Below are positions 1,876-41,100 of a stretch of 41,100 nt of DNA, one piece after another. Below the pieces are notes generated by a model. That model saw only the letters and a program-made list of their open reading frames with translations. It had not been told where the DNA came from and searched no databases. Source of the DNA: a virus. The DNA is taken from the IMG/VR virus record IMGVR_UViG_3300005439_000007, positions 1 through 41,100 of that record; one strand, given 5' to 3'. Position numbers and translations under genes: made by a program. Every line of letters begins with the position of its first letter. The stretch's first letter is position 1.

Positions 1876-3180
1876 TTGGTGATTGCAGTGTCATCTCTCG
1901 CGAACTGGCTACCTGACTACAAACAACGCTACGGGGAGTTCACCAACCCGCTCCCCGAAGAAAACACGATCGCGGATTGGTTCGACTTCGTCCCGCAAGA
2001 CCAGCGGCCCGGTCAGAATTTCAATTTCCCGGTCGTCGTTCAGAACGAGCACGGTCAAACCGCCGACAACACCGGCACCGCGTTCACGCTGAACTCGGCG
2101 ATCGACAGCGTTCTGAAGAACGCGCAGATCGACGGCTCGACGCTCGCGCTCGTCGGCAACATTCCGTACGACGTGACGTTCCGCGGCCGAAACGGCGCGG
2201 GCAACGGCGGCAACGGCGGCGCGTTCCGGTCTGCATTCGAGCTGAAGACCAGCTTGATGATGCAGTCGATGGAGTTCTACCGGGAGATCTCTCTCCTCTA
2301 CGGTGCGGGCTCCACGACGACGGCTGCGTCGAACATCGGCGTGGTGAACGGCGCGACCGGCACGAACCTCGGCACCGGCGCGGGCATGGCGATCACGATC
2401 ACCGCGGCTTCCGCGGCGCCGGCCATCTACAACAACCTGATCGGCGCGCTGGTGGACGTGTACCAGAGCGACGCGACCACGTTGCGCGCCAGCGGTGTGA
2501 GCGTGACTGCGTTCACCGCGAGCACGGGTGCAGCTGGTAGCTTCAACACCGTCCAGCTCTTCAAGACATCGTCAGCGACGGTCGTCGCGGCGAACGACAT
2601 CATCGTTCCGGCCGGCTGGCTGTCGAAGACGTGCGTGGGCGTCGAAGCGATTTTGACCAACAGCGGCACGCTGTTCGGCATCAACGCTTCGACCTATCCG
2701 ATGTGGAAGGCGGCGACCTTCAGTGCGGCGAGCGGTGCGCTCAACCGCGCCAAGGTGCTCGGTATGATGGCCAAGCTGTTCCCGAACGGCTTGGATCAAG
2801 GCGGCCGTCTCTTCGCGTCGGCGAACACGTTCGCTGACCTCGCGGAAGAGGCCGATGCGCTGCAACGCTTCACCGGCAACACCGACGAAGTGAAGCGGCA
2901 GGGCGCGAACGCGCTCGAGTACAAGTCGCCCGCTGGACCGGTCAGCGTCGTTCTTCACAAGTACATGAAGAACGGGCAGGCGATGTTCTTCCCGCGCGGC
3001 ATCGGCAAGCGCGTCGGATCGACGGACATCACGTTCCGCGGTGAAGGCCAGGACTGGTTCTTCCTCGAGCTGCCGAACAACGCGGGTTGTCAGCTGCGCG
3101 TGATGAGCAACCAAGCGCCGGTGCTCCGCATCCCGTACCGCTGCGCGATCATCAACAACATCGTCAACAACAACACCTGA
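1876..3180 (+). CDS. Major capsid protein (about 434 aa; TTG 1876 or GTG 1879 start)
   Basis: It follows the scaffold gene and has a size typical of HK97-fold or P22-type coat proteins. It is flanked by the promoter-like site and a strong intrinsic terminator. No database search was done. Confidence 0.7.
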   Translation: MVIAVSSLANWLPDYKQRYGEFTNPLPEENTIADWFDFVPQDQRPGQNFNFPVVVQNEHGQTADNTGTAFTLNSAIDSVLKNAQIDGSTLALVGNIPYDVTFRGRNGAGNGGNGGAFRSAFELKTSLMMQSMEFYREISLLYGAGSTTTAASNIGVVNGATGTNLGTGAGMAITITAASAAPAIYNNLIGALVDVYQSDATTLRASGVSVTAFTASTGAAGSFNTVQLFKTSSATVVAANDIIVPAGWLSKTCVGVEAILTNSGTLFGINASTYPMWKAATFSAASGALNRAKVLGMMAKLFPNGLDQGGRLFASANTFADLAEEADALQRFTGNTDEVKRQGANALEYKSPAGPVSVVLHKYMKNGQAMFFPRGIGKRVGSTDITFRGEGQDWFFLELPNNAGCQLRVMSNQAPVLRIPYRCAIINNIVNNNT

Positions 3181-4301: not shown

Positions 4302-5317
4302 ATACGACCGACCTACTCACTCGCTGTCGCCAAGCAGCGTTTCTCGAGGACACCGCAACCGATTACACGGACAGCGTCATCCTCGGGCAGATGTACGACC
4401 AGATGCTGCAGCTCTACGAGCGCGCGGTCGTCAAGTCGCGTCAGGGGTACTGGTTCCAAACGCAGAAGATTCCGGTGACGGCTGGGCTCGCGACGTATCC
4501 GATCCCCGCGCGCGCAGTGATGAACACGATGGAGCGCGTGCAGATCGCCTACGACAGCACGCTCGACTACGCCGACTTGAACCGCGTCGATGAAGGGCAG
4601 GCGCCGAACTACGAGCTTGGCGTCGGACAGACTGGACAGCCCGCGCGTTACACGACCCGCGGCCGCAACATCGTTCTTCTGCCGCTGCCTGACAGCAGTG
4701 TGTACACGCTACGCGTCGAGTTCTACTGCCGCCCGTCGCGGCTCGTTCCTCCGCAAACGGCATCGACGAACGGACTCATCACCGCAATCAACAACGTCTC
4801 GAAGACCGTCACGGTGTCGGCGGACACGACATCGTTTGACAGCACCGGATCACAGACGAGCATGGCGGCCGGTACGTGGTCGATCGACATCATCAGCGGC
4901 AACGGCACGCCTGCCGGTCTTCTGAATCTGTCTTCAGACACGACTGATGGCAACTGGCACGACTTCGTGATCACGAGTGCGAGCGCCACGGCTTCGACAC
5001 ACGTGTGGACCTTCACGGACTCGACGATCGACCTGTCGGCTGTGCAGGTTGGCGATTACGTGCGCGCCGCGAACCAGAGCGAGTGGCCGCAGATCTCCAG
5101 CGACTTTCACCGCACGGTCGCAGATGCCGCCGCCGACAAGATTCTCATCGAGCGGCGCATGTCGAATCCCGACCTCACGCAGCGACTCGCCGATGACCTC
5201 GCGCGCTTCCTCGATCTGCTGCAGCCGCGCGCGCTCAACACGCCTGCTGCTGTCGTGGTTGCGCCGGTGAGCATGTACCGCGGACTGCGGCGCGCGTGGC
5301 CGGTGAAGTACCCATGA
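4298..5317 (+). CDS. Virion structural protein (339 aa), adaptor or tail-tubular-A-like by position
   Basis: GTGA overlap start. Its position between the head genes and a large tail-like protein is the only basis; no motif was recognised. Confidence 0.4.
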   Translation: MNTTDLLTRCRQAAFLEDTATDYTDSVILGQMYDQMLQLYERAVVKSRQGYWFQTQKIPVTAGLATYPIPARAVMNTMERVQIAYDSTLDYADLNRVDEGQAPNYELGVGQTGQPARYTTRGRNIVLLPLPDSSVYTLRVEFYCRPSRLVPPQTASTNGLITAINNVSKTVTVSADTTSFDSTGSQTSMAAGTWSIDIISGNGTPAGLLNLSSDTTDGNWHDFVITSASATASTHVWTFTDSTIDLSAVQVGDYVRAANQSEWPQISSDFHRTVADAAADKILIERRMSNPDLTQRLADDLARFLDLLQPRALNTPAAVVVAPVSMYRGLRRAWPVKYP

Positions 5318-19029: not shown

Positions 19030-20166
19030 TCAGCGAGTCGGATTGTTGAGTGATTTCGCTGCAGCGCTGTGCTCATCCAGCGACGTAGTTGCCGCGATTG
19101 CCGTACTTTCTGGTGCATCCGCGGTGCACAGACGCGGGCGCGTGATGCGCGGAAGCTTGTCGACTGCGCCGCGCAACGCCTCGGGCTGCAGGTGCGGCTG
19201 CGAGTACGTGCGCATCTGCATCAGCTCGCTGTTGCCCTGCAGTGCGGCGCGCTCGGCGGCCGACACGCCTTGCAGCGCGAGCGCTGTCGCGTACGTGCCG
19301 CGTAGATCGTTGGCGCTGCGCGGGCCGATGCCGGCGCGCTTGCACGTGCTTCGCACGATGTGGTCGATCGCATCGCGACGGATCACCGGGAAGCCCGTCC
19401 ACTCGCCGCGGTTCTTCTGCTCGACCATCAGCTCGAACAGCTCGTCGGGGATCGGAATCCAGCGCGGGCTTCGGTCGGTCTTCGTGCCTTGGCAAAACAG
19501 CATCTGCCGCGACCAATCGATCTCGGTGATCTTGTTCCACTCGCTGGCGCGGATGCCGAGCGACGGCAGCGCGACGCACACGAACTTGTGGTGCGGCTTG
19601 GCGGCCATGAAGAACCGCCGCAGGTCCTCGGGGCTGAGCGGCTCTTGCGGCTTCGCGCTCGTGTCGCCGAGCTCGGGGAGATCGGGCGCCTTGAGGCCCA
19701 CCGCGCGCATCGCGCGCTGCAGCGCGAACAGCTCGCGCATCACGGTCACCGGCAACCTCTTGGCGGTCGCCTGCGTCGCGTAGTCGACCAGCGCCTGGGT
19801 AGCGTCTTCTGTGGTGAGCGTTCGCAAGTCGTAGTCCGGTTTGAAGTGAGCGAGTAGGTGACGCGCTTCGCGCATGGTGTTGCCGTGCGCGAAGTCGGTC
19901 AGCTGAGCGAGGTTTTGTTGTTTGGTGATCTCGCGGAGCGCGTCGTCGAGCCTTTTCGGCTTGCGCTTCTGATCAAGTCCTCCATTCGTTGCGCGTGCTT
20001 GTTCGACCCAGTAGGCGGCGATGGCGGCGCGCTCGGACTCTTTGCTTCCGTCGTCTCGGATGTGGAGAGCGCGCTGTGGTCGACTGCCGTCTGGGAGCTT
20101 GAGGTGGCAGTACCAGTACCGTCCTCGGGCTGTGACGCGCGAAAAGATCGGGACCTGTCTCCGCAT
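19030..20166 (-). CDS. int: Tyrosine recombinase / phage integrase (378 aa from ATG 20166; GTG 20235 possible)
   Basis: Box I is LGIRASEW, followed by GTKTDRSPRWIPIP. Box II is NDLRGTYATALALQG...GNSELMQMRTY. GAGGAG RBS precedes ATG 20166. Confidence 0.85.
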   Translation of the reverse strand: MRRQVPIFSRVTARGRYWYCHLKLPDGSRPQRALHIRDDGSKESERAAIAAYWVEQARATNGGLDQKRKPKRLDDALREITKQQNLAQLTDFAHGNTMREARHLLAHFKPDYDLRTLTTEDATQALVDYATQATAKRLPVTVMRELFALQRAMRAVGLKAPDLPELGDTSAKPQEPLSPEDLRRFFMAAKPHHKFVCVALPSLGIRASEWNKITEIDWSRQMLFCQGTKTDRSPRWIPIPDELFELMVEQKNRGEWTGFPVIRRDAIDHIVRSTCKRAGIGPRSANDLRGTYATALALQGVSAAERAALQGNSELMQMRTYSQPHLQPEALRGAVDKLPRITRPRLCTADAPESTAIAATTSLDEHSAAAKSLNNPTR

Positions 20167-20354
20167 GATTCGTCTCCTCGGGTTCGGGCTCGACGACGGA
20201 TGTAGGCCCGCCACTGGGCGGGTGTCACCACCCACCCGACGTCCGGCTCACGCCAGCCACCAGCGCGGCGAATCAGCCTCGCCGCGCTGGTGCGACCGAC
20301 CTTCGCAAGCTTCTCGATGTCCTGCGTGCGCAGCCACGTCAGGTCCTCGGTCAC
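19899..20354 (-). CDS. Excisionase-like HTH protein; only the first 60 or so codons look genuine and the 3' end is uncertain
   Basis: GTGA overlap with the SpoU gene stop. HTH-like WLRTQDIEKLAKVGRTSAARLIRR. The ORF has no stop until 19899, which is 267 nt inside int. Confidence 0.5.
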   Translation of the reverse strand: MTEDLTWLRTQDIEKLAKVGRTSAARLIRRAGGWREPDVGWVVTPAQWRAYIRRRARTRGDESCGDRSRSFRASQPEDGTGTATSSSQTAVDHSALSTSETTEAKSPSAPPSPPTGSNKHAQRMEDLIRSASRKGSTTRSARSPNNKTSLS

Positions 20355-20845: not shown

Positions 20846-21106
20846 TCACCACGGCAGGTCGTCATCTGGGTCGACTGGCCACGGGAGCTTGCCTCCGAGG
20901 TGGCTGTATCGTCCCCACTCGATGTGCCTCTCGCGGTAGACGGGGCGCGAGTCGATCCATCGCTGGAGTTCTTCGGCGAATGCGTCATGGCGTAGCTCCG
21001 AGTGGTCCGGCGTCGCCGTCTTCTGCTCGGTTGAGCGCGTCGTTCGGCAGAAACGGATCGTCTTGCATCTCGCCCGTCTCCGGATCGGCGCCGACAGCCT
21101 CAGCAT
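20846..21106 (-). CDS. Hypothetical protein; start unresolved (86-aa ORF overlaps the ATPase 3' end by 122 nt)
   Basis: The C-terminal 45 or so codons are GC3-rich and protein-like (DAFAEELQRWIDSRPVYRERHIEWGRY). There is no ATG, GTG or TTG downstream of the ATPase stop. Confidence 0.4.
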   Translation of the reverse strand: MLRLSAPIRRRARCKTIRFCRTTRSTEQKTATPDHSELRHDAFAEELQRWIDSRPVYRERHIEWGRYSHLGGKLPWPVDPDDDLPW

Positions 21107-22049
21107 CGAGCCTGCGCTGCGCCTCGGCTTGTGCTGCGAGGATCGTCGCCTCGACAGCCTTGCGATGGTTCGCCTGCTGTAGAGTCGGCAAGCGCTCGGT
21201 GTAGTAGTTGAGGTAATCGGTCAGCGCGCTGTGCGGCAGCGACGAGAACGGCACCTCGGCGTACTGCTTCACGGCGTAGCTCTTCGCCGTCTTCGTCGGC
21301 AGCGGGCCAGACTGCGCCGGTTGTGTTGGCCGCGGCTCCGCTTGCTTGATCGAGCCCGTGTCGTGGAACTCGCGCATGGTCGCGCCGATCTTCGCAAGCT
21401 CACCGGGCGCGAACTTGGCGCCGTCCAGCTCGGTGATGCGGGTCTTCGACACGCTCACCTCGTGGTCCAAGTTGATGTCGAGCTGCACCGAGAACTCGTA
21501 CTCGACGCCCTCGCGGAAGATGGGAGCCAGGCCGATCTTACGAGGCACCTGCACCATCTTGCCGTAGCGGTTCTCGCGCTCCTCGAGGACGTAGGCGGTC
21601 TTCGTCCGCACGGTGCAGAGCAGGTGAATGGGGCTCGCGCTGATCGCCGTTAGCAGCCTGTTGTGCGACGGCGTGACGTCTTTCCAAGCCGTGAACGCGT
21701 TGCCGCCGTTCGCCTTCTTGTCGACCGTCTCGAGCGCGCCACCTTCGCCCGACCACACGTGCGTGAGCGAGTCGATGACGAGCACGTCGTATGCCTTCGA
21801 CGCGAAGCACGCATTCATGGCCTGCAGGTACTTCTCGTAGGTGTACGGCGGCGACAGCTCGCACACGTCGAACGCGAGCCCGTTCAGCCCGACGTACAGG
21901 CTCGCGCTTCGGTTCTCGCTGTCGATCACGGCGATGCGGTCGCCGAGCCCGCGGGCGATCTCGAGCGCGGCGCGCGTCTTGCCGCTGCCGCTCGGGCCGG
22001 CGAGCAGCACGCGCGCCTTCGTCTTCTCGCGAGACGCCGCCTTGAACAT
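20985..22049 (-). CDS. AAA_24 / Sak4-like RecA-core ATPase (354 aa)
   Basis: Walker A is LLAGPSGSGKT and Walker B is VLVIDSLTHVW. Start MFKAAS lies 5 nt after the upstream stop. The ORF-track extension to 22223 was rejected. Confidence 0.75.
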   Translation of the reverse strand: MFKAASREKTKARVLLAGPSGSGKTRAALEIARGLGDRIAVIDSENRSASLYVGLNGLAFDVCELSPPYTYEKYLQAMNACFASKAYDVLVIDSLTHVWSGEGGALETVDKKANGGNAFTAWKDVTPSHNRLLTAISASPIHLLCTVRTKTAYVLEERENRYGKMVQVPRKIGLAPIFREGVEYEFSVQLDINLDHEVSVSKTRITELDGAKFAPGELAKIGATMREFHDTGSIKQAEPRPTQPAQSGPLPTKTAKSYAVKQYAEVPFSSLPHSALTDYLNYYTERLPTLQQANHRKAVEATILAAQAEAQRRLDAEAVGADPETGEMQDDPFLPNDALNRAEDGDAGPLGATP

Positions 22050-22054
22050 GGCGC

Positions 22055-22369
22055 TCACGGCTGCACCTCGTTCTTCAGCGGGCCGTGCGCCTTGTCGGCG
22101 ATTCTGCTGGCGTAGTCGTGAGTGAACTCGACGTACTGGTCGTCGTCGGCGTCGCGGTAGCAGCGCGCTGCGCCGGCGGAGATCGCGGCGCGGTATGTCT
22201 TCCACCACGCTTCCTCGTGCCACGCGCGCTTGGCTGAGCGTGCTTCGCGCACGTCATCCACGCGGCAGCTGATGAACTCCTCGATCGTCAGCGGCTCCTC
22301 GCCTGCCTCCTTGAGAATGGAGTTCTGCGTGTCGAGCTCCGCCGCCCACGCCCTGAAAAGCTCTTCCAT
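22055..22369 (-). CDS. Hypothetical protein (104 aa)
   Basis: TGATG junction with the upstream gene, in the frame of listed ORF 22055..22828. Confidence 0.6.
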   Translation of the reverse strand: MEELFRAWAAELDTQNSILKEAGEEPLTIEEFISCRVDDVREARSAKRAWHEEAWWKTYRAAISAGAARCYRDADDDQYVEFTHDYASRIADKAHGPLKNEVQP

Positions 22370-23230: not shown

Positions 23231-23256
23231 TCGTGTTCTCCAATGTTTGGCCGCCA

Positions 23257-24127: not shown

Positions 24128-24664
24128 TTACGTCGTACGCCGGTGACGAGGCGCGGGCGGGCGCTTCTCGAGCTCGCGGCGGAGGTGTGCGATCTCCGAG
24201 TCCTTCGAGATCAGCGCCTTCTGCATGTCGAGCATCAGCGACCGCATTTCGCGCATCTCCTGATCGACTGTGTGTCGCCAGTCGTCGAGCTCGGCATCGC
24301 GTGCCTTCTTCCTCGCCGCATCCAGCGAGTAGATCTTGACCGCGTTTTTTGCCTCACCCTCGTAGTCGTCGAAAAAGTAGTCGGGGGAGATCTTCAGCTG
24401 GTCGCGCACCTTGCGAACTATGTCGGCGGACAGGCCGGTGTAGCTAGCGTTTTCGTAGTTCACCAGCCTACTTAGGTGGCCTTTATCCATACCAAGTAGC
24501 CGACCTATTTGAGCCTGTGACAAGTCCGTGTCTCGAACAAGCTGCGTCACCAGCCAGGAGAAACGACGGAGCTCCCGTGTGATCTCCTTCACATCGTTCT
24601 GCGGTGCGCCTCGCTCCCGACCATTTCCCATGGACTCATTGTCCACGTTTTCGGGTTGACGCAT
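24128..24664 (-). CDS. XRE-family HTH repressor (CI-like), 178 aa (alternative start 24631)
   Basis: HTH is LSQAQIGRLLGMDKGHLSRLVNYE. It is divergent from a Cro-like gene. The C-terminus is coiled-coil-like and no S24 peptidase motif was seen. The ORF-track extension to 24820 would overlap cro and was rejected. Confidence 0.7.
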   Translation of the reverse strand: MRQPENVDNESMGNGRERGAPQNDVKEITRELRRFSWLVTQLVRDTDLSQAQIGRLLGMDKGHLSRLVNYENASYTGLSADIVRKVRDQLKISPDYFFDDYEGEAKNAVKIYSLDAARKKARDAELDDWRHTVDQEMREMRSLMLDMQKALISKDSEIAHLRRELEKRPPAPRHRRTT

Positions 24665-24673
24665 GGCAGAGAG

Positions 24674-24726
24674 AAGTTGCGTACTAGCAACTTGACAAAT
24701 GACAACGCCACTGTCATCGATAGGGA
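24674..24726. promoter_or_regulatory. Repressor/cro divergent control region with two inverted repeats and a TTGACA -35
   Basis: AAGTTGC-N6-GCAACTT (24674-24693) and ATGACA-N7-TGTCAT (24699-24717). TTGACA at 24692-24697. The -10 elements are weak or unclear on both strands. Confidence 0.45.
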
Positions 24727-24948
24727 ATGAGAGCCCCGAACGAGCGCCTGCGGAGCTGGAGAGAATCGTGTGGTCTGTCGATGCGGGGCGCTGCGGAGCG
24801 TCTGGGTTGTTCGGAGTCATACATCTGTCTCATTGAGGCGGGCCGTAGGAACCCCGGCCGAGCCATTGCCGTTCAGATCGAGGCTGTAACAGGTATTCGT
24901 GTCTCCGCGTGGCCCATGCGCACGCGAGCCTCGAACGAGGCCGCATGA
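24727..24948 (+). CDS. Cro-like XRE-family HTH protein (73 aa)
   Basis: HTH is LSMRGAAERLGCSESYICLIEAGRRNP. It is divergent from the repressor with a 62-nt gap. Confidence 0.7.
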   Translation: MRAPNERLRSWRESCGLSMRGAAERLGCSESYICLIEAGRRNPGRAIAVQIEAVTGIRVSAWPMRTRASNEAA

Positions 24949-25529: not shown

Positions 25530-25750
25530 CCAGAAACGAAAAGGCCCCGAGCGTTACAGCGCTCGAGGCCAAACGGAGACCAGACAGGAAACGATGTAGG
25601 AATTATGGGGCCACGCCCCGCGCGTTGCAAGGGTTCACTTTCCACGGCGACCCAAGCAGCGCGCTCCCGAGCGCGGACCCGCGTTCGATCTCTCACAGCC
25701 CAACGCTGATCGCAATCGCCGCCGGCATCGTGCGCGGGGGTCGGCCATGA
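25526..25750 (+). CDS. Hypothetical basic protein (74 aa)
   Basis: ATGA overlaps at both ends, but GC3 is lower than in neighbouring genes. Confidence 0.5.
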   Translation: MTRNEKAPSVTALEAKRRPDRKRCRNYGATPRALQGFTFHGDPSSALPSADPRSISHSPTLIAIAAGIVRGGRP

Positions 25751-28041: not shown

Positions 28042-28226
28042 AAGCGGCCTACGCGCAAGCCGTCGCCGCGCTGCACTGGCTCGGACACATCGAGGCCAAG
28101 TACTTCGGCGAGCAAGAGCCGCATGCCGTCGCTGCGCGCACCGACGCTGACAACTTGCACCAGCGCGCGCAACGCCGCCTGCGCAAGGTGATGGCGCACC
28201 TGATGAAGGCGGCTAACGATGTCTGA
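27960..28226 (+). CDS. Hypothetical protein (88 aa); start uncertain
   Basis: This is the only in-frame start for a protein-like C-terminal half. It overlaps the upstream gene by 82 nt. Confidence 0.35.
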   Translation: MRIRSNAARERQAEVWDPDPLTPQTEIEAAYAQAVAALHWLGHIEAKYFGEQEPHAVAARTDADNLHQRAQRRLRKVMAHLMKAANDV

Positions 28227-28836
28227 CCAGCTGTCGCTCGCCGCTGGCACGCAGAACAAAGCGCTCTCGCAGTGGTTCACGCCGCGAGAGACGGCCGAGC
28301 GCATCGTGCGGTGGGCAGAGCCGACACGTCGACTCGACCGCTCGGCGTGGAAGATACTCGAGCCGAGCGCAGGGCGCGGTGCGCTAATCCGGGCGCTTCT
28401 CGACGAGTACACAACGGGTCCGGTTCCGACCATCGAAGCACTCGATATCGACGCCGGCAACGTGGATGCGATCGAGGACTCGTTCAGCAAGTTCTATGTG
28501 CTCGCGCACCAGGCTGACTTTCTCTCGTGGGAATCGACCACGCGCTTCGACGTCGCGATCATGAATCCGCCTTTCGAGGGCGGGCAGACCGAGCGGCACA
28601 TCATGCACGCGCTGAAGTTCTCCGACCGCGTGGTGTGCCATTGCCCGCTGACCACGCTGGAAGGCAAGGCGCGGCGCGAGAACCTGTGGAGCAAGGTGCA
28701 TCTGCATCGCCTCGCCATCTGCAGCTCACGTCCGAAGTACGGCGCCGGAAGCGGCGCAACGGCGATGTGCACGATCGACGTGACGCTGCATGACCCGCGC
28801 GTCGAGGCCTATACCGCAGTCGAGTGGTGGCCATGA
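28219..28836 (+). CDS. N6-adenine DNA methyltransferase, compact orphan (205 aa)
   Basis: Contains FTPRE, motif I ILEPSAGRGAL and motif IV VAIMNPPF. No restriction partner is present in the genome. Confidence 0.8.
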   Translation: MSDQLSLAAGTQNKALSQWFTPRETAERIVRWAEPTRRLDRSAWKILEPSAGRGALIRALLDEYTTGPVPTIEALDIDAGNVDAIEDSFSKFYVLAHQADFLSWESTTRFDVAIMNPPFEGGQTERHIMHALKFSDRVVCHCPLTTLEGKARRENLWSKVHLHRLAICSSRPKYGAGSGATAMCTIDVTLHDPRVEAYTAVEWWP

Positions 28837-29006
28837 TCGAGCTCATCGTCATCGGCATAGCGACACTCGGCGCAGCGCGCTGGCTGCAACGTGACACGCA
28901 CCGTCGCGATCATGATCCTCGCTCGCAAGAGCGCAGTGATTGGCTCGAGACGCGCGAGTGGGATCGCAAACAGCCGCCGCCTTTGCCGCGCAGAAAACGC
29001 GACTAA
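28833..29006 (+). CDS. Small membrane protein (57 aa)
   Basis: ATGA overlap. TM helix MIELIVIGIATLGAA followed by a basic tail. Confidence 0.55.
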   Translation: MIELIVIGIATLGAARWLQRDTHRRDHDPRSQERSDWLETREWDRKQPPPLPRRKRD

Positions 29007-29009
29007 CGC

Positions 29010-29038
29010 TTGACAGCGATCTAACACTGACCTAGTGA
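29010..29038 (+). promoter_or_regulatory. Candidate promoter TTGACA-N17-TAGTGA
   Basis: A perfect -35 lies 4 nt after the stop of the early-right operon. It sits in a lower-GC gap preceding the conserved leader motif. Confidence 0.4.
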
Positions 29039-29072
29039 CACAACTGCAGTAACCACAAACATTGGAGAACAC

Positions 29073-29246
29073 ATGGCACAGCGAATCGATTGGGATGCGA
29101 TGCCGCACGACGAGATGGTCGCGCAGCTATCAGCAGGAGCTGAAGTGCGCGACAAGCGGGTGCGCGAGCTGATGGACGCCGACAAGCCGAAGCGTCGGCA
29201 GTACAGCGGCAAGAACGGCGCGACCGAACACACGGAGGCCGTGTGA
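29073..29246 (+). CDS. Hypothetical protein (57 aa), absent from the ORF track
   Basis: ATG is preceded by AAACATTGGAGAACAC (GGAG RBS). Translation is MAQRIDWDAMPHDEMVAQLSAG... TGATG junction with the next gene. Confidence 0.55.
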   Translation: MAQRIDWDAMPHDEMVAQLSAGAEVRDKRVRELMDADKPKRRQYSGKNGATEHTEAV

Positions 29247-29497
29247 TGGCGGTCCGATCGGCGCCGTACGCGCATCGGGCCTATGCCCGAGGCGGTACGA
29301 GGGAAGCGGTGCTCGAGTGCCTCGAGCTGAACAAGCACACTGACCTGACGGCGCGTGACGTCGCGCGTCTCGCTCGCGTCGGAGTCAGGACGGCAAGCGA
29401 TAAGCTGCGGGAGCTGCGCGACGAAGGCTTGGCGTACTCGCGCATGAACGTGACCCATGTCGGCACCGTGCTGCTTTGGGGTAGAGTCGCGGTATGA
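29246..29497 (+). CDS. Winged-helix (MarR/ArsR-like) DNA-binding protein (83 aa)
   Basis: REAVLECLELNKHTDLTARDVARLARVGVRTASDKLRELRDEGLAY. Confidence 0.55.
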   Translation: MAVRSAPYAHRAYARGGTREAVLECLELNKHTDLTARDVARLARVGVRTASDKLRELRDEGLAYSRMNVTHVGTVLLWGRVAV

Positions 29498-29745
29498 GCA
29501 TCGAGAGCATGGGCGAGAATCCGCCGCTGAACGTTTCACCGGAAATCATCCAACAGAGCGAGCAGGCGTGGAAGAAGCGCGCGCTCGACGCTGAGGCCAA
29601 GCTCAAGCGGTACGAGGAGCGCGAGCCGTTGGTGCAGGCGTTGCTGACCAAATGCGTCGAGTGCCCGCAGTGCGATGTGGTTGATGAGATGTGCGCGAGC
29701 TGCGAACGAACGTTTCAGCTGGTGCGCGACTTCAAGCTGGAGTGA
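29494..29745 (+). CDS. Hypothetical Cys4 protein (83 aa)
   Basis: ATGA overlap. Contains CVECPQC...CASC. Confidence 0.6.
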   Translation: MSIESMGENPPLNVSPEIIQQSEQAWKKRALDAEAKLKRYEEREPLVQALLTKCVECPQCDVVDEMCASCERTFQLVRDFKLE

Positions 29746-29748
29746 CGT

Positions 29749-29901
29749 ATGAGCTGGCGAATGCTGCTGCGGCCCATGTGCTGGATGCGAGGCCATACGG
29801 GGGTGCTTGTTCGCGGATGGAGACTTGGTTACGACGGTGTTCCGTACTCGGACAATACCGAGCTGCAGTGCCGTCGCTGCGACTACGTGCTGCATCTGTG
29901 A
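29749..29901 (+). CDS. Small zinc-ribbon-like protein (50 aa), absent from the ORF track
   Basis: MSWRMLLRPMCWMRGH...LQCRRCDYVLHL. It has the same C-x3-GH...CxRC pattern as 35267..35461. Confidence 0.45.
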   Translation: MSWRMLLRPMCWMRGHTGVLVRGWRLGYDGVPYSDNTELQCRRCDYVLHL

Positions 29902-30290
29902 CCTAACAGACCCGCTCCCCCAGCAGAGCCACCGGTCGCGGGTCCGGAGCGTAGAAGGGCAGGGCGCTCACTCTCAAGGAGAGGGTGGGCGCCCTTCCCC
30001 GGCGATCGAGAGTTGGAAGCAGCGGCGGTGTTCGTCGCCAGAATCACCGGGTAAAGCCGAGTCAAGGCATGCCGGCCGCCGCTGCTTCGAGCTGATCGAT
30101 CGTTGGAAGCTGCATCGACAACCGCTGACAGTGTCGATCGACGGCAGAGGGCCACTGGCACAGGGCCACGACGTCGGTGCAGCTTCGAGCGCTCGTCGCT
30201 CGTCGAAGCCACCAGCCCCAGAGCTGCGCGATAAAGGTCCGGCCGTCTGCCCCCACGATACGGGGGCGTCAAAACATTGGAGAACACAAC
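29902..30290 (+). ncRNA. Structured non-coding region (candidate leader or regulatory RNA) upstream of the membrane-protein cluster
   Basis: No GC3-biased frame. Two tandem units are closed by 13-bp (30016-28/30076-88) and 14-bp (30106-19/30173-86) stems, with further hairpins at 29954-29997 and 30249-30267. The RNA identity is inferred, not shown. Confidence 0.4.
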
Positions 30291-30509
30291 ATGATTCGAA
30301 TCGCATTGGCGCTGACCGCGCTGAGCGTTGCGATGGCGTGGTGGCAGCGGCGCGCCGCCATCGTGCCTCGCAACATCAGCCCGGCAGCAGAGGCGCGCGC
30401 GCAGTCGCGCGTTGACCTGTTGCATCGGCTGAAACAGGCCTCGTTCTACGCCGCGGCAGGGGTGTGGTGCGCGGTGCTCATCCACGCCGCGACGTGGGGT
30501 GCGCCATGA
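30291..30509 (+). CDS. Two-TM small membrane protein, holin-like (72 aa)
   Basis: Preceded by the AAACATTGGAGAACAC motif. TM helices IALALTALSVAMAWW and FYAAAGVWCAVLIHAATW. Confidence 0.55.
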   Translation: MIRIALALTALSVAMAWWQRRAAIVPRNISPAAEARAQSRVDLLHRLKQASFYAAAGVWCAVLIHAATWGAP

Positions 30510-30703
30510 TTCACGACGCGATGGTGCTCACGCGTCAGGTTGGCGAAGCGCTCGGCATTGGCCCCAGCGACATGCTCATGATGTTCGTCGTGCTGCCGCT
30601 GGTCGTGGCCTTCTTCACGCGCAAGATTCTGGTCTGGCAACAGGTCGTGTCTGTGCTCATCACGCCGCCGCTGTTCTGGGCCGGCATGGCGGTGATGCGA
30701 TGA
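30506..30703 (+). CDS. Two-TM small membrane protein (65 aa)
   Basis: ATGA overlap. TM helices MLMMFVVLPLVVAFF and VVSVLITPPLFWAGMAV. Confidence 0.55.
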   Translation: MIHDAMVLTRQVGEALGIGPSDMLMMFVVLPLVVAFFTRKILVWQQVVSVLITPPLFWAGMAVMR

Positions 30704-31080
30704 ACGCGCCCGACTTACTCGCGATGCATGAGTGGATGAAGCACTGGGCGTATGTGCAGGCTCAGGCTCATCCGTTGAATAGCAACGCGTGGCTGCAGGC
30801 GCCCTACTACGCGTACGCGTTCACCGTGCTGTGTGTGGGTGGCTTCATCGGATGGTGGTTGCGCGGACTCGCGCGTCGCGTCGAGTCGGTGCTCGTTCAC
30901 GAGCACAACGGCAAGCGCTACGAGCAGCATGCAAGCGGCCCGTGGTTGCAGCACATGCATGACGTCGAGACGGGCAAGCTGGCGCGTCTCGAGGTGATGG
31001 AAGAGCCGCCGATCGGCCAGCGTCCGCCGCCAGCGGTCAAGCTGAGCTCGCCGAACCAGCGACTCAAGGCCGCTCGTTGA
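30700..31080 (+). CDS. Single-TM protein (126 aa)
   Basis: ATGA overlap. TM helix YAFTVLCVGGFIGWWL. Confidence 0.55.
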   Translation: MNAPDLLAMHEWMKHWAYVQAQAHPLNSNAWLQAPYYAYAFTVLCVGGFIGWWLRGLARRVESVLVHEHNGKRYEQHASGPWLQHMHDVETGKLARLEVMEEPPIGQRPPPAVKLSSPNQRLKAAR

Positions 31081-31086
31081 CAAAAT

Positions 31087-31116
31087 GGCACACCACTGGG
31101 ACGCTGGTGGTGTGCC
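31087..31116 (+). other. Perfect 10-bp hairpin GGCACACCAC-N10-GTGGTGTGCC
   Basis: It starts 7 nt after the stop, which lies within a TTGACAA heptamer (31077-31083). No U-run follows. Confidence 0.45.
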
Positions 31117-31177
31117 TCGCTGGCGCAACAGAGCTCGTGTGCTCCCGATGGGCCGGGCTGCGGAATGGAAGCGAGCG

Positions 31178-31444
31178 ATGTCGCAGAAAGTACGACTGGC
31201 TGATGGAACCGAGCTCGACATGCTCAACCCGGTCAGCATCCGAGACTACGTCCGCAAGACGCTGGCGCTGAACGTCTCACCGACCGCCAGCGAGCTCAGC
31301 CGGCTGACGATGATGCGAGAGCTGGCCGAAGAACTCGAAGCCAAGCAGCCGAAGCCCGACGAGCAGCCCGCGTCGCTCGACGACCTCGCTGCCGCTCGTG
31401 AGCGGCTGAGGCAGGCTCGATTGGCTGAGCGAGGTGGCAAGTGA
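31178..31444 (+). CDS. Hypothetical protein (88 aa from ATG 31178)
   Basis: GGAAG lies before the ATG. The upstream part of listed ORF 31085.. covers the hairpin and is Arg-rich. Confidence 0.5.
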   Translation: MSQKVRLADGTELDMLNPVSIRDYVRKTLALNVSPTASELSRLTMMRELAEELEAKQPKPDEQPASLDDLAAARERLRQARLAERGGK

Positions 31445-31838: not shown

Positions 31839-31877
31839 GGGTGCCAGTTCTAAACCTAGAAAGCACCTGAGGTTTTG

Positions 31878-32033
31878 GTGGAAACGTCCGAAGTTCGAGA
31901 AACGCTACCCAAGTACCTGAATGCACGCAGTCTTTCGGAGCTGATGGACCTGCTCCACGACAAGGACATTGGCCGGCCGATCACCGACCGCAAGCGCATC
32001 TGGTCGGCGCTCAGGGCGGCACGTTTCACGTGA
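31878..32033 (+). CDS. Small protein (51 aa), absent from the ORF track
   Basis: GAGG lies 6 nt before GTG 31878. Translation is VETSEVRETLPKYLNARSLSELMDLLHDKDIGRPITDRKRIWSALRAARFT. It sits in a lower-GC pocket and competes with minus-strand ORF 31856..32107. Confidence 0.4.
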   Translation: METSEVRETLPKYLNARSLSELMDLLHDKDIGRPITDRKRIWSALRAARFT

Positions 32034-32105
32034 AAGCTTGACCAGCTGTGCGAATCCGTGCAGTGTGGCTGGCGGTGATGGCGGTCGCTCTCAGGAGCTG
32101 ACTCC

Positions 32106-32294
32106 ATGCAGCCATTTCAGAACAGCGCCGCCGAGTGGCCGATCGTCATCACGGTCGCCGTGTGCGTCGCGGTCGTGTGCCTCTACCTCAGCAGCTGCAC
32201 GCTGCACGAGAACCCGATCGGCCATCGCATCGACCAGCCGCCGGTCGTGGTGCACACGCCGCCCAAGCACGATGACGACGGGGGTGCGCGGTGA
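32106..32294 (+). CDS. Small Pro-rich lipoprotein, o-spanin-like (62 aa)
   Basis: AGGAG RBS. Signal peptide plus lipobox VVCLYLSSC. The mature part is short and Pro-rich. Confidence 0.5.
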   Translation: MQPFQNSAAEWPIVITVAVCVAVVCLYLSSCTLHENPIGHRIDQPPVVVHTPPKHDDDGGAR

Positions 32295-35270: not shown

Positions 35271-35461
35271 CCCTGCTCTCCGCCATCCTGTGCCGCGCGT
35301 TCGGCCACCGGCCATACACGCATCCGCACGTGAAGTGGGAGCGCAGCAAGACGTGGAGCGGACACGACGGCACCGCGGTGATCGTCACGCGCTGCTCGCG
35401 GTGCAACGTGAAGCTCGCTGAGCGACCGATGCTCGCGGGAGAGGACACCATCGAGGCTTGA
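35267..35461 (+). CDS. Small zinc-ribbon-like protein (64 aa), DUF1660-like pattern
   Basis: ATGA overlap. Contains ILCRAFGHRP...TRCSRCNVK. Confidence 0.5.
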   Translation: MTLLSAILCRAFGHRPYTHPHVKWERSKTWSGHDGTAVIVTRCSRCNVKLAERPMLAGEDTIEA

Positions 35462-37032
35462 TGCCGCACAGCGACTACAGCGAGAAGCAACGACGCGCCG
35501 ACCTCGCGCTCATGTGGGAGTTCGGCGAGCTCTCAGAGCTCATGCACGAGGGTCAGCTGCGCCTGCGCAACCAGTTCCATGCGTGGCGTGCGATCGACCA
35601 GCTCGAGCTGACGCACGACGACGGCGCTCTACCGCTCGTGTTCGCGGTGAAGGGCGGCAAGCGCTTCGGCAAGACAACCGGCGCGCTGTGGATCGCCCAC
35701 GAGCTCGCGGTGTGGTTCGCCAAGAAGTACGGCCGGCCGGCGATGATGCGCTACACGAGCGCCTTTCAGAAGACGATCGACGAGATCATCGGCTCGGTCG
35801 CGCCGCAGGTGTTCGAGACGGCGCCTGCGAGTTGCGAGGCGCAGTACCACGGCAAGCGCGGCCCGCTGCCCGCAGGCTTCTACTGGCCGACGCAGGGTCC
35901 GACGATGGGCGCACGCATGGCGCTCGCCGGACTCGACATGAACAAGAATGCGCTGCGCGGTCAGGGCAACGACTTCGACTTCATCAGCGAGGCCGCGTTC
36001 ATCGACAAGCTCGACTACACGGTCCGCAACGTGCTTATTCATCAATACCATCAGCGGCCGTGGTCACGGATGATGGTCGAGACGAGCGCGCCCGAGGTGC
36101 TGGGCACGGACTGGGAGATGATCATCCTGCCCGACGCCGAGCGGCGCGGTGCAGTGTTCACGGCGACGATCGAGGACAACCCGCGCCTGTCGCGGCGAGA
36201 GAAAGACTTCTGGATCGGCCAAGCGGGCGGTCGCGGTAACCCGAACTGCGAGCGCGAGTACTTCAATGTCATCAGCGCGTCGCCCGAGCAGCAGGTGATT
36301 CCCGAGTTCGACGAGAAGGCACACGTCATCGATACGCCGCGACCGAAGCACGCGATCGCGATGGCGGCGATGGACCCGGGCATGCGCGACTTGTTCGCGA
36401 TCGTGTGGGGCTATTGGGATGCAGCGCGCGCCAAGCTGGTGATTGAGCGTGACTGGGCGCAGCGCAACGCCAGCACGGCGCAGGTGGCGCAGGTCATCAA
36501 AGAGGCCGAGCGCGAGCTGTACGGCGAGCAGCGCGCGCGCATGGGCCTCGAGCGCGATGGGTTCTGCTGGTGGGACGGCAAGGAGTTCCGCGCCAACCCG
36601 ATGCAGCGCATCTCGGACACTGAGGCGCGGCTCATCGGCGATTTGACGGTCGACTACGGCATTGCCGTGCAGAACACGCTGAAGGACGACAAGGAAGCGG
36701 CGCTCTACGCGCTTCGTAACGCCTTCCGCGATGGCAAGGTGGAGATTCACCCGCGCTGCGTGAAGCTCGTCAGCCACGTGCGCACGGCGCGCTGGAACGA
36801 CAACCGCACCGACTATGAGCGCACGCCGCAGCACGGCCACTATGACCTGCTCGATGCGCTCGTGTACCTATGGCGAATGGTGCAGCCGGTACGCAACCAG
36901 GACCCATTCCCACCCGCGTACGCCGACCAGAACGACCGCAACGTGCTGTTCATGCAGCCGCCGACAGCGGCGCCGCATGCGCTCAAGGGCCTGCAAGAGG
37001 TGTTCGGCGGCCGACGAGGATCGTGGAGATGA
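35461..37032 (+). CDS. terL: Terminase large subunit (523 aa)
   Basis: Walker A is VKGGKRFGKT and Walker B-like is DFDFISEAAF. Nuclease-domain acidic motifs are AAMDPGMRD and HYDLLDALVY. TGATG junction (TTG 35458 alternative). Confidence 0.9.
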   Translation: MPHSDYSEKQRRADLALMWEFGELSELMHEGQLRLRNQFHAWRAIDQLELTHDDGALPLVFAVKGGKRFGKTTGALWIAHELAVWFAKKYGRPAMMRYTSAFQKTIDEIIGSVAPQVFETAPASCEAQYHGKRGPLPAGFYWPTQGPTMGARMALAGLDMNKNALRGQGNDFDFISEAAFIDKLDYTVRNVLIHQYHQRPWSRMMVETSAPEVLGTDWEMIILPDAERRGAVFTATIEDNPRLSRREKDFWIGQAGGRGNPNCEREYFNVISASPEQQVIPEFDEKAHVIDTPRPKHAIAMAAMDPGMRDLFAIVWGYWDAARAKLVIERDWAQRNASTAQVAQVIKEAERELYGEQRARMGLERDGFCWWDGKEFRANPMQRISDTEARLIGDLTVDYGIAVQNTLKDDKEAALYALRNAFRDGKVEIHPRCVKLVSHVRTARWNDNRTDYERTPQHGHYDLLDALVYLWRMVQPVRNQDPFPPAYADQNDRNVLFMQPPTAAPHALKGLQEVFGGRRGSWR

Positions 37033-39126: not shown

Positions 39127-41100
39127 ATGTTCGAAGCTACTCCGACGCCACAGACCGCACCGCAAGCTGCTCCGCAGCCCACGAACAGCAGCTACGTGTA
39201 TTGGGCTTCGAAGCCGGCTGAAGAGCTGGTCGGAGAGCTCCGCGAGAAGGAGCGCATGTACTTCGATGCGGCCACGCGCCGCGGACTGAAGAGCATGTGG
39301 GCCATCGCCTGGGCGCAGTACTACGGCACCGACCCAGCGAACCCGAGCGACCTTGCGACGCAGACGACCGCGCGCACAGGTCCCGAAAGCGAGTTCACGA
39401 GGTTCCGCATCAACGAGGTCCGCAGCTTCATCAAGCAGCAGAACGTGATCGCGCTCGGCGAGCGCCCGGCATTCCAATGCCTCGTGCTGAACAGCGACCA
39501 CGACGCCGTCAGCAGCGTCGAGATCGCGGACAGCATCGTCGAGTACCTCTACAAAAAGGGGCTCGGCGAGGAGAAGGAGCGGCAGACGCTGGAGATGGAA
39601 GGCGTCTTCGGCGGCGCGTACGCGCACCTACGCTGGGACTTCGCCGGTGGCGACGACATCACGACGATGCAGCCGGTCAACGGCCCGGATGGCCGGCCCG
39701 TGATCGGCCCCGACGGCATGCCGGCGATGATGCCGCACGAGCAGAAGTCAGGCGTTCCCTACGTCGACGTGATGGCGCCATGGGAAGTTCCCCGCGGGCT
39801 CACGACGCGCGAGCTCGACTGGGTTCTGGTGCGCGAGCGCGCGAGCAAGTCGGAGATCATTGCGACGTATCCAGCGCTCGCCGATCAGATCGACGGCGCG
39901 ACGACGCTCGACGAGTACACGGTCGAACGCCTGTTCGGCTACGACTACGACTTCAAGGACGACGCCGACGACGGCATCGTGAAGCACTTCTATCACCCGA
40001 AGTGCAAGGCGATGCCCGAGGGTCGCTACGTCGGTCTGTGGGGTGACGTCGTGTTGTGGGACGAGGCGATCCCCGTGCCCGAAGGCACGCCGGTGATCGA
40101 GATGTGCTCGGGCAAGTTCATCGGCTCGAGCTTCGGTTACGCCGACTCGTGGGACCTGATTTCGATCCAAGAGATGATCGATCAGATGGTGAGCGACACG
40201 GCGTCGAACCTGTCGACGTTCGGCCGCAACACCATCGTCTACGACAAGGGCAGCGAGATGGACGTCTCGCTGATCGCCATGGGCCTGCGCGCGCTCGCGA
40301 AGACGCCGGGCAGCGATCCCCCGCAGGCGATCAACTACGCCTCGATGCCGGAGTCGGTGAAGTGGTTCATCGAGTACCTGCACGCGCGGCATGAATCGAT
40401 CTCGGGCTTGAACAGCGTCGCGCGCGGCAACCCGAGCGACAACATCAAGAGCGGCCAGATGGCGGCGCTCTTCCACTCGATTGCCATCGAGTTCCAGAGC
40501 GCGCGGCAAGCAGCGCTCGACAACTTCCGCGAGCGCATGGCGAACATGATGCTCGACATGGTCCGCAGCTACGCGGACACGCCGTTTCTGATCGAGGTGG
40601 CCGGCGTCGAAGAGCGGCCGTATCTGCGCGAGTTCACCAAGCAGAACGTGAGCGGCGTGCGGAAGGTCCGCGTCGAGACAGCGAACCCGATGCTGCGCTC
40701 GCAGGCGGGCCGCTTTGAGATGTTTCAGGCGGTCTTCAATCCGAACGTGCAGCCCGAAGACCGGGACGCGGTCGTGCGTGGGCTCACAACGGGCGATTGG
40801 AGCGGCGTGACCGACAAGGCGCGCTCGCGTGACCTGCGCGTGCTCTGGGAGAACGAGCAGCTGGCGAACGGAGCGACGCAACAGGTGCTCGTCGCCGCGG
40901 GTGACAACCCGTTCAAGCATGTGCCCGAGCACTGGCAGCTGTTCGAGAAGCTCAGCTCTCAGGACGGCGCCGATCCGAAGCTTCTGCAGGGCGTCCTCGA
41001 GCACATTCTCGAGCACTTGCAGCAGTGGCAGATGATCGACCCGCGTCTCGCGACGCTGCTCAACATCCCGCTGCCTCCGCCGATGCCCGGCACGCCGACG
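39127..41100 (+). CDS. Portal protein (658 codons to the window end; about 723 aa when joined to 41..238)
   Basis: An uninterrupted GC3-rich frame runs from ATG 39127, with an in-frame TAG at 39118, to the window end. It is absent from the ORF track because it has no stop. It lies between terL and the scaffold gene, and its size matches P22-type portals. Confidence 0.8.
   Translation, partial: MFEATPTPQTAPQAAPQPTNSSYVYWASKPAEELVGELREKERMYFDAATRRGLKSMWAIAWAQYYGTDPANPSDLATQTTARTGPESEFTRFRINEVRSFIKQQNVIALGERPAFQCLVLNSDHDAVSSVEIADSIVEYLYKKGLGEEKERQTLEMEGVFGGAYAHLRWDFAGGDDITTMQPVNGPDGRPVIGPDGMPAMMPHEQKSGVPYVDVMAPWEVPRGLTTRELDWVLVRERASKSEIIATYPALADQIDGATTLDEYTVERLFGYDYDFKDDADDGIVKHFYHPKCKAMPEGRYVGLWGDVVLWDEAIPVPEGTPVIEMCSGKFIGSSFGYADSWDLISIQEMIDQMVSDTASNLSTFGRNTIVYDKGSEMDVSLIAMGLRALAKTPGSDPPQAINYASMPESVKWFIEYLHARHESISGLNSVARGNPSDNIKSGQMAALFHSIAIEFQSARQAALDNFRERMANMMLDMVRSYADTPFLIEVAGVEERPYLREFTKQNVSGVRKVRVETANPMLRSQAGRFEMFQAVFNPNVQPEDRDAVVRGLTTGDWSGVTDKARSRDLRVLWENEQLANGATQQVLVAAGDNPFKHVPEHWQLFEKLSSQDGADPKLLQGVLEHILEHLQQWQMIDPRLATLLNIPLPPPMPGTPT
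41061..41100. repeat. Terminal overlap copy 2 (identical to 1..40)
   Basis: Exact 40-nt match to the window start. This looks like an assembly-type direct terminal repeat marking a circular or permuted genome. Confidence 0.95.

Follow-up and report, generated by a model that had tools for sequence, protein, structure and literature searches.

What kind of element fills the 389-bp gap between genes at positions 29902-30290 of IMG/VR virus record IMGVR_UViG_3300005439_000007, a stretch of 41,100 nt that was analysed whole and is referred to here as the window? A sequence-only reading had noticed two tandem long-stem units in this gap and had offered three options for them, namely a put-like or other cis-acting antitermination or attenuation RNA, a stable non-coding RNA, or a DNA-level protein-binding array. 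Comparison with related phages shows a non-coding locus in which plus-strand RNA structure is under selection, with a constant scaffold that holds exchangeable and sometimes conserved cargos, and with tRNAs or tRNA-like RNAs occupying the same slots in relatives. The locus resembles a slot in which small RNAs are exchanged more than it does a gene switch, and among the three options the stable non-coding RNA fits best.

The non-coding status claimed for the gap was borne out, as there is no consistent codon-position GC signal over 29900-30260, gene calling on the source contig placed nothing in the gap, and no conserved coding frame was seen in homologues, whose wholesale replacements and indels are incompatible with any frame. 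A small open reading frame (ORF) in the leader was considered and rejected, having no start codon and a 2-nt indel in relatives. Folding of 29902-30290 on both strands, which the earlier reading had proposed as a check, gave -189.3 kcal/mol on the plus strand compared with -159 ± 6 kcal/mol for dinucleotide shuffles (z = -5.05), with 0 of 100 shuffles folding as well, and a z of -2.1 on the minus strand. By part, the plus-strand z was -3.96 for the leader, -4.24 for unit A and -3.99 for unit B, with units A and B folding about equally on both strands. Structure in the 3' part (30182-30272) was not significant (z about 0), and the loops inside units A and B were structured like shuffles (z = -0.19 and 0.00, respectively).

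Both units were found at the positions first given for them. Cassette A (30016-30088, plus strand) is closed by GAAGCAGCGGCGG (30016-28) pairing with CCGCCGCTGCTTC (30076-88) in 13 Watson-Crick bp, formed of a GAAGC/GCTTC clamp and a further 8 bp around a 47-nt orphan cargo loop (30029-30075). Likewise, cassette B (30106-30186, plus strand) is closed by GAAGCTGCATCGAC (30106-19) pairing with GTCGGTGCAGCTTC (30173-86) over 14 bp, formed of the same clamp and 9 bp, one of them U.G, around a 53-nt orphan cargo loop (30120-30172). The A/T difference between the two 5' arms is mirrored by T/A in the 3' arms, which is the compensatory change that had first pointed to selection on pairing.

Homologues were gathered through a 126-amino-acid (aa) protein encoded 400 nt downstream and then through a profile of its family, with one IMG/VR contig found through the terminase. 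Nine loci carry a homologous region (L011, L012, L013, L016, L024, L027, L028, L030 and L031; L014 and L015 are identical to L013, and L029 to L028), and L025 and L026 lack it. Within IMG/VR, the exact 28-nt leader had no match, the pattern GATCGANNGTTGGAAGCWGC occurred in eight loci (L001-L008), all within unrelated coding genes, and the cassette pattern with three gap ranges returned the L011 contig only, as did the related-locus search with the 126-aa protein or its family profile. The cassette pattern gave four chance matches in coding DNA (L020-L023) in metagenome and genome collections (JGI, GTDB).

Selection on the closing stems, as the earlier reading had suspected, is evident from covariation across 12 units in ten loci, which were anchored on the clamp and scored over a 12-bp helix against 500 shuffles and partner-slid controls. 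Pairing was found in 97.9% of cells; all five clamp pairs are invariant, and the other seven pairs are all variable with changes on both sides, the A-U versus U-A swap between units A and B being one instance. None of the 500 shuffles reached the covariation score or the percentage paired, and two reached the count of seven covarying pairs, while sliding the partner by 1-3 columns reduced pairing to 22-48%. Stem lengths range from 10 to 14 bp and nearly all pairs are Watson-Crick. The stem of cassette B is orthologous to those of L011, L013 unit B, L028 unit B, L030 and L031 unit B, again with compensatory changes. The closing stems are thus under selection for pairing.

Which strand and which nucleic acid is selected can be read from the leader hairpin, which has 2-7 G.U pairs per locus on the plus strand and 0-1 on the minus strand. 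The G.U positions become A.C mismatches on the minus strand, and the plus-strand fold is 5-18 kcal/mol more stable. Together with the orientation of the tRNAs described below and that of the flanking genes, this asymmetry indicates that the structure acts as plus-strand RNA and not as DNA.

What lies inside the stems behaves quite differently from the stems themselves. Between L013 and L031 the 110-nt leader and hairpin are 100% identical, as is a 34-nt stretch formed of the inter-unit linker and adjoining stem arms, whereas both cargos are unalignable; the adjacent 126-aa gene is 79.8% identical. The window and L031 form the same mosaic of constant scaffold with unrelated cargos. Some cargos are conserved between phages: L016, L027 and L028 share cargo C4 at 92-98% identity, against 68-74% for the neighbouring gene, and the closing stem of C4 differs by two compensatory pairs (CCUCA/UGAGG versus CAUCG/CGAUG), while cargo C5 is 91% identical between the second slot of L028 and the first slot of L031. 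The ten loci hold at least 11 cargo types, which are unrelated to one another, and comparison of these sequences indicates that the interiors are cassettes and not drifted spacers. Two short motifs in the cargos may be coincidental. The motif AAUCAC(C) recurs in otherwise unrelated cargo loops (window 30043-30049, C4 at L016 940-946, and L011 at ~5308-5316), and C5 contains ACCUCC, which is anti-Shine-Dalgarno-like.

The slot of cassette A holds tRNA-Asn in L016 and L027, a tRNA-like RNA in L013 and cargo C5 in L031. Taking as tRNA a cloverleaf with D, anticodon and T arms that scores at or above the Rfam RF00005 gathering score of 29 bits or is called by ARAGORN, such occupants were found in L016, L027, L024 and unit A of L013. 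The first slots of L016 and L027 carry tRNA-Asn(GUU) by ARAGORN, with Rfam tRNA scores of 64.9 and 60.6 bits, respectively; both are on the plus strand and, read from the sequence, have a U1-A72 pair and G73. The single unit of L024 (50.7 bits) and unit A of L013 (35.8 bits) align with normal acceptor, D and T arms and an aberrant anticodon arm, which in L013 has a 6-nt loop and in L024 a 15-nt insert where the model has 5 (a 10-nt-enlarged loop), and these two cargos are predicted to be incapable of decoding. In both, the GAAGC/GCUUC clamp extends the acceptor helix by leader-trailer pairing and no 3' CCA is encoded. Unit B of L013 has a cloverleaf-like fold of three hairpins without tRNA signature nucleotides, and many units have exactly 7 bp beyond the clamp.

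The window's own units differ from these. ARAGORN found no tRNA gene in the window and there was no tRNA match at E ≤ 10 in units A or B; under relaxed settings ARAGORN gave nothing at the 85% threshold and noise-level calls on both strands at 70%. Cargo A and cargo B have no homologue in any compared locus. The idea of an antisense or small RNA (sRNA) target was rejected, as nowhere else in the phage is there sequence significantly complementary to the leader, cargos or extension. Also rejected were the ideas that a cargo is an invertible segment or was copied from another cargo, neither strand having given any match. Units A and B are best described, from these comparisons, as orphan non-tRNA members of the cassette family, and it is the scaffold and the stem pairing that are demonstrably conserved in the window.

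This scaffold has one anatomy in the loci compared. Near its 5' end the gap contains a 37-nt leader block, AGACCCGCTCCCCCAGCAGAGCCACCGGTCGCGGGTC (29908-29944, plus strand), which is identical in 8 of the 9 loci that include it and invariant across phages whose flanking genes are 55-80% identical and whose upstream genes differ. It is present as a single copy in the window and forms a stem-loop (SL0, plus strand) in which GACCCGC (29910-16) pairs with GCGGGTC (29938-44). L011 keeps both 7-nt arms around a different, longer loop, and SL0 shows no covariation because its stem never varies. The imperfect hairpin that had been reported ahead of the units is present and was placed at 29957-29999 (hairpin 1, plus strand), as a GC-rich inverted repeat of 15 bp + 3 bp with a pair probability of 0.9999; an equivalent of 13-18 bp occurs in all nine loci, with its base conserved and its distal part variable.

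Following the GC-rich hairpin is a constant linker, CGGCGAUCGAGAGUUG (the constant linkers of the scaffold are GAUCGAnnGUUG and GAGC); in the window this is constant linker 1, CGGCGATCGAGAGTTG (30000-30015, plus strand), which is conserved in alignments and is the first direct-repeat copy. Each locus then has 1-3 units that start with GAAGC and end with GCUUC-GAGC, with the inter-unit linker GAGCUGAUCGAUCGUUG between them, represented in the window by GAGCTGATCGATCGTTG (30089-30105, plus strand), the second direct-repeat copy. The constancy of this linker explains the 20-nt direct repeat noticed at the outset, which the repeat finder recovered at 30004-30023 and 30094-30113 with 85% identity and a spacing of 90 nt. 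In the full-length fold the inter-cassette linker pairs with linker 1 and lengthens helix A to 10+4+14 bp.

After the last cassette comes a mini-hairpin, GAGCG-CTCGT-CGCTC (30187-30201, plus strand), which stands out as invariant alignment columns and as a helix in the full fold. Its general form is CGAGCG-n-CGCUCG, followed by the ribosome-binding site (RBS) ACAUUGGAGA and ATG, and it is kept in all loci, including L030 and the array-less L025. An optional 3' extension (30202-30273, plus strand) occurs only in the window and L031, at 95% identity, and contains the GCCCCC-N7-GGGGGC hairpin (30249-67) of the first description, which in L031 is one bp shorter in both arms; since the extension starts with TCGAAGC, it may be the remnant of a third unit. 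The Shine-Dalgarno context ACATTGGAGA (30274-83) and the ATG at 30291 (together 30274-30293, plus strand), which open the first small membrane-protein gene (30291-30509), are conserved in all loci. L025 (1-240) and L026 have no leader and no cassettes, and keep the mini-hairpin (CGAGCG..GCTCG) and the ACATTGGAGA context right after a different upstream gene. L027 carries two extra inserts that have no homologue in the other loci, one at 1226-1325 after the tRNA-Asn, ending in a canonical terminator-like hairpin (GGCGGGAAAGACCGCCCTTTCTTT), and a GC-rich one of ~90 nt at 1425-1515 after the last unit.

The reading that we favour, and to which we give about an even chance, is that the gap is a transcribed, plus-strand, non-coding islet of small RNAs and tRNAs in the leader of the downstream operon, whose exchangeable cassettes are probably excised by host nucleases. 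The scaffold would consist of the leader stem-loop, the long GC hairpin, single-stranded linkers (GAUCGAnnGUUG ... GAGC), the 5-bp clamp GAAGC/GCUUC and the closing mini-hairpin before the RBS, and each cassette of the clamp and 5-9 covarying bp, together closing a 45-100-nt cargo that differs wholesale between near-identical relatives. Lying at the end of the early regulatory genes and before the small membrane-protein genes that lead to terminase, the region would be the leader of the operon downstream. The constant linkers would be the sites at which host nucleases (RNase P/Z, RNase E and/or RNase III) cleave its transcript, and this would free the stem-clamped RNAs as stable accessory payloads and leave the downstream mRNA capped by a short 5' mini-hairpin. 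The persistence of the mini-hairpin and RBS in L025, which has no array, counts in support of such an arrangement. Cassettes would be swapped between phages by recombination at the 20-34-nt constant linkers, and the phage encodes a Sak4-like annealing protein.

Several points weigh against this islet. Transcription, the processing sites and RNA stability are all inferred, and no sigma-70 promoter or hairpin-plus-U-tract terminator was found in 28800-31200, with none convincing nearby, although the sigma-70 consensus may not be that of the host. The 3' flank of the stems (GAGC) does not have the RCCA motif preferred by bacterial RNase P, and the leader-trailer pairing over the tRNA-like acceptor end must open for canonical RNase P/RNase Z cleavage. 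The designation of a 'late operon' is suggested by gene order only, the neighbours having no family matches. Both cargos of the window are orphans without a tRNA call, as described above, their loops are structured no more than shuffles, and any role of theirs beyond stem formation is conjectural. Furthermore, there are only ten loci, all of them metagenome assemblies, and some are closely related, so that the covariation counts are not fully independent.

The alternative that survives best, possible if rather unlikely, is a cis-acting regulatory leader in which the stem-loop, GC hairpin and stems govern read-through, stability or translation downstream and the cargo loops are unconstrained spacers. 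This could work through put-/nut-like antitermination, through a U-tract-less terminator or pause, or through RNase III-dependent leader processing. The 37-nt block that stays invariant between diverged flanking genes is what such a leader might look like, as are the very stable plus-strand RNA hairpin in every locus, the position directly upstream of the RBS, the unstructured and unique cargo loops of the window, and helix A, which with its linkers reaches 28 bp and is RNase III-sized. However, the coding DNA next to C4 and C5 is less conserved than these cargos, the slot that C5 occupies is not the same in its two loci, genuine tRNAs occupy some slots, unit number varies from one to three, and L025 lacks the array altogether. 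The leader is also single copy, and no terminator or promoter was detected.

The specific switches that had been proposed fare no better. The mutually exclusive fold between GCTTCGA (30182-88) and TCGAAGC (30203-09) did not hold up, for while the two segments are complementary, the equilibrium probability of their pairing is negligible (0.002), and it is possible only in the two loci with the 3' extension. Hairpin 1 and both units precede CGGCGAUCG and GAGC and not the U runs of an intrinsic terminator. No Rfam family, including bacterial Y RNA (YrlA), reached threshold in the window when the suggested Rfam check was run, the best sub-threshold matches being miRNA/snoRNA models at 10-26 bits. 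HK022 put and lambda nut are conserved paired stem-loops in nascent leader RNA upstream of genes needing read-through, and both occur as two copies downstream of early promoters. Compared by description only, the invariant leader and hairpin here could be of the put/nut type, but the leader is single copy, the scans showed no terminators downstream, and sequence conservation is lacking in units A and B. Conservation of both sequence and structure, as in put and nut, was found only in the invariant 5' leader, the unit interiors being unrelated between loci with identical flanks. The option of a put-like or attenuator RNA is not supported for units A and B, since close relatives with 100% identical flanks have real tRNAs or other unrelated sequences in place of their interiors. 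The invariant leader at 29908-29944 could, with its hairpin, still be a cis-regulatory element. A purely cis-regulatory reading is plausible for this 5' module and, should the cargos not matter, for the stems as well.

The tRNAs themselves raise another possibility, that an ancestral phage tRNA cluster is eroding and that units A and B are functionless vestiges whose acceptor-stem pairing persists by chance, which we consider improbable. The occupants can be arranged as a series, with true tRNA-Asn at one end, non-tRNA units at the other and tRNA-like RNAs whose anticodon arm is broken in between, and both the recurrence of exactly 7 bp past the clamp and the cloverleaf-like fold of unit B of L013 would suit this descent. 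Yet perfect 12-14-bp stems and compensatory changes at seven of seven variable positions indicate ongoing selection, conservation is 91-98% for the non-tRNA cargos C4 and C5 in diverged phages and 100% for the constant linkers, and the cargos are mutually unrelated and not graded derivatives.

A DNA-level element (protein-binding or recombination sites, cruciforms, miniature transposon ends or attC-like cassette sites) is very improbable since, while near-perfect inverted repeats with constant outer ends, the exchange of cargos as cassettes and the similar folding of units A and B on both strands might be expected of one, the G.U pairs are confined to the plus strand and cost the minus strand 5-18 kcal/mol as A.C mismatches, the arms covary unlike a conserved protein site, there are no other copies in the genome, and neither a GTTRRRY/RYYYAAC core nor an integron integrase or transposase lies nearby, the sole integrase being 10 kb off. 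The strand-specific G.U pairs likewise contradict the protein-binding array among the original options.

Individual candidates of related kinds were also rejected. Integron attC arrays carry exchangeable cassettes bounded by hairpin-forming sites conserved in structure and not in sequence, and attC acts as single-stranded DNA, has a GTTRRRY core and needs IntI. The present locus shares with them the exchangeable cassettes between hairpin-forming sites, but its cassettes have no ORF and its pairing pattern, strand-specific and RNA-like, indicates RNA; against the attC consensus (RYYYAAC ... GTTRRRY) the linker reads GTTGGAA, with A instead of the core pyrimidine, and there is no inverse core and no IntI. 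A miniature inverted-repeat transposable element, which would be expected in several copies whose terminal repeats and interiors are both conserved, was dismissed because no other copies exist in the genome or related loci and the arms covary instead of staying conserved. A CRISPR array or the solitary repeats of an RNA anti-CRISPR would have 28-37-nt repeats and ~30-40-nt spacers without terminal inverted repeats, whereas here the repeat is 17-20 nt at 90-nt spacing and the inserts are closed by their own inverted repeats; the sole Rfam CRISPR-DR match scored 15.5 bits against a gathering score of 39.

Going beyond the small-RNA islet itself, clamp and linkers might be a platform dedicated to plugging in small RNAs, comparable to an integron or anti-defence island but with RNA as its payload, through which these phages would take up, display and exchange stem-clamped RNAs. 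A specific nuclease or recombination step would then recognise the GAAGC/GCUUC frame, and the payloads, among them single-stranded loop RNAs and tRNA mimics unable to decode, would be directed at the host's tRNA-targeting defences or at other factors of the host. We regard this as speculative and distinctly unlikely. Phage tRNA genes and leader RNAs are known, but to our knowledge a conserved scaffold with interchangeable stem-clamped small RNAs has not been described before. Its inserts span real tRNA, non-decoding tRNA mimics and unrelated loop RNAs, making it an unusual form, with constant scaffold and swappable cargo, of the tRNA/small-RNA islets of phages. Were the cargos to be cut out and to have activity, the locus would serve as a compact hotspot, ready for recombination, of accessory functions based on RNA, and would be a natural place to find new small RNAs of phages, which might be directed against tRNA-targeting immunity. 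Were the stems alone to matter, it would represent a leader element of a new type, in a phage lineage whose genes are almost all unannotated. In both cases a defined construct set (scaffold with or without cargo) is at hand that is directly testable.

Among known systems, the late leader of lambdoid and Shiga-toxin (Stx) phages (PR', 6S/StxS, tR', tRNA genes, stx/lysis) also occupies a non-coding stretch between regulatory and lysis/late genes and also places a structured leader RNA before tRNA genes. In Stx phages, RNase E cuts this leader RNA to give the stable sRNA StxS, and the interval from tR' to stx contains tRNA genes (PMC7547250). In contrast, the locus described here has no sequence or Rfam similarity to these leaders, scans revealed neither a sigma-70 promoter nor a U-tract terminator, none of the upstream proteins matches Q in Pfam or PHROGs, and the tRNA position is a clamp-bracketed slot that in relatives holds mostly non-tRNA or non-decoding RNAs. 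The locus may also be likened to phage tRNA clusters (the T4 operon, mycobacteriophage and T5 arrays), in which small structured RNAs in tandem share a transcript and depend on host nucleases for maturation (PMC11143913), with accessory content that varies between related phages and anticodon regions that depart from the norm (PMC10264068). It has been proposed that phage tRNAs whose anticodon loop is altered serve to counter tRNA-cleaving defences (PMC10264068), and the substrates of RNase P include the phage M3 and C4 RNAs as well as polycistronic mRNAs (PMC11143913). Unlike those clusters, the present arrays have 1-3 units, most cargos are non-tRNA, two tRNA-like cargos are predicted to be non-decoding, and the units sit inside a constant clamp-linker scaffold that extends the acceptor stem.

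Plant mitochondrial t-elements and MALAT1 mascRNA likewise place tRNA-shaped or acceptor-stem-like modules by an mRNA end, where pairing of the flanking leader and trailer makes the acceptor helix longer and defines RNA ends (PMC1920247, PMC8457004). By this likeness, RNase P or RNase Z cutting would define the end of the neighbouring RNA, the resemblance here being one of architecture only (L013 and L024). Those systems are eukaryotic or organellar, and most cargos here, including both window cargos, do not have the T-arm elbow that these enzymes recognise. All these precedents are parallels, and the locus was assigned to none of them.

The source is an uncultured, temperate soil phage. A 40-bp direct repeat at the window ends (1-40 and 41061-41100) indicates that the window is a complete circular phage assembly of ~41 kb, and a 41,090-bp Logan contig from SRR5456976 is identical to it. 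Matches to Pfam/PHROGs identified an integrase (19030-20235, minus strand), the Sak4-like annealing protein (20985-22223, minus strand), a repressor-like gene (24128-24820, minus strand), a DNA methyltransferase (28219-28836), the large terminase TerL (35458-37032) and a head protein (1876-3180). Most genes have no Pfam or PHROG family, and the lineage is almost without annotated genes; the DNA methyltransferase is the only gene near the gap with such a match. Searched against 50,697 cultured phage records, the large terminase had no tblastn match and the 389-bp region no blastn match.

The early operon (plus strand) ends at 29901, where it adjoins the 389-bp gap, and the flanking genes are all on the plus strand. 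Upstream lie an 84-aa protein, an 83-aa CxxC protein and a 50-aa protein, and downstream three small proteins (72, 65 and 126 aa) whose sequences show hydrophobic segments. The gap thus sits between a module of winged-helix-like and Zn-ribbon-like small genes and small membrane-protein genes, upstream of terminase. The placement assigned to it earlier, between small DNA-binding or Zn-ribbon-like genes and membrane-protein genes, stands; for the lambdoid late-promoter part of that claim, no Q homologue, sigma-70 promoter or U-tract terminator was found. For the 84-aa protein, AlphaFold gave a low-confidence model, with a predicted local distance difference test score (pLDDT) of 62, and the best Foldseek match had E = 0.12, the winged-helix-like matches being weak and non-significant.

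Some further observations concern the surrounding sequence. Window positions 29243-29745 form a conserved module that starts with the 84-aa protein (homologues in L011, L012 and L028; weak winged-helix-like model), followed by one or two proteins with a common KRYEEREPLVQALL ... VRDFKL motif. The gene directly before the leader varies by locus, and the position of its stop codon (TGACCTAACAG) is the same in most loci with that junction, except L011 and L012. A strong intrinsic-terminator-like site lies at 25543-25570 (minus strand), between the repressor-like gene and the early operon, with an 11-bp stem (9 GC pairs) followed by TTTTCGTTTC. Exact copies of the 10-mer ACATTGGAGA stand ahead of several start codons, at 29059-29068 (plus), 30274-30283 (plus) and 23237-23246 (minus), and has five matches at ≤1 mismatch compared with 1.1 expected, which suggests a phage-specific translation-initiation context. 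Finally, a second conserved non-coding stretch (31839-32105) lies upstream of a conserved 62-aa gene (32106-32294). Its overall fold is not significant (z = -0.56), its 5' part is more AT-rich with a hairpin followed by GAGGUUUUGG, and positions 32037-32105 are 85-87% identical to L012, L013 and L016; relatives have gaps of 300-535 nt at this place.

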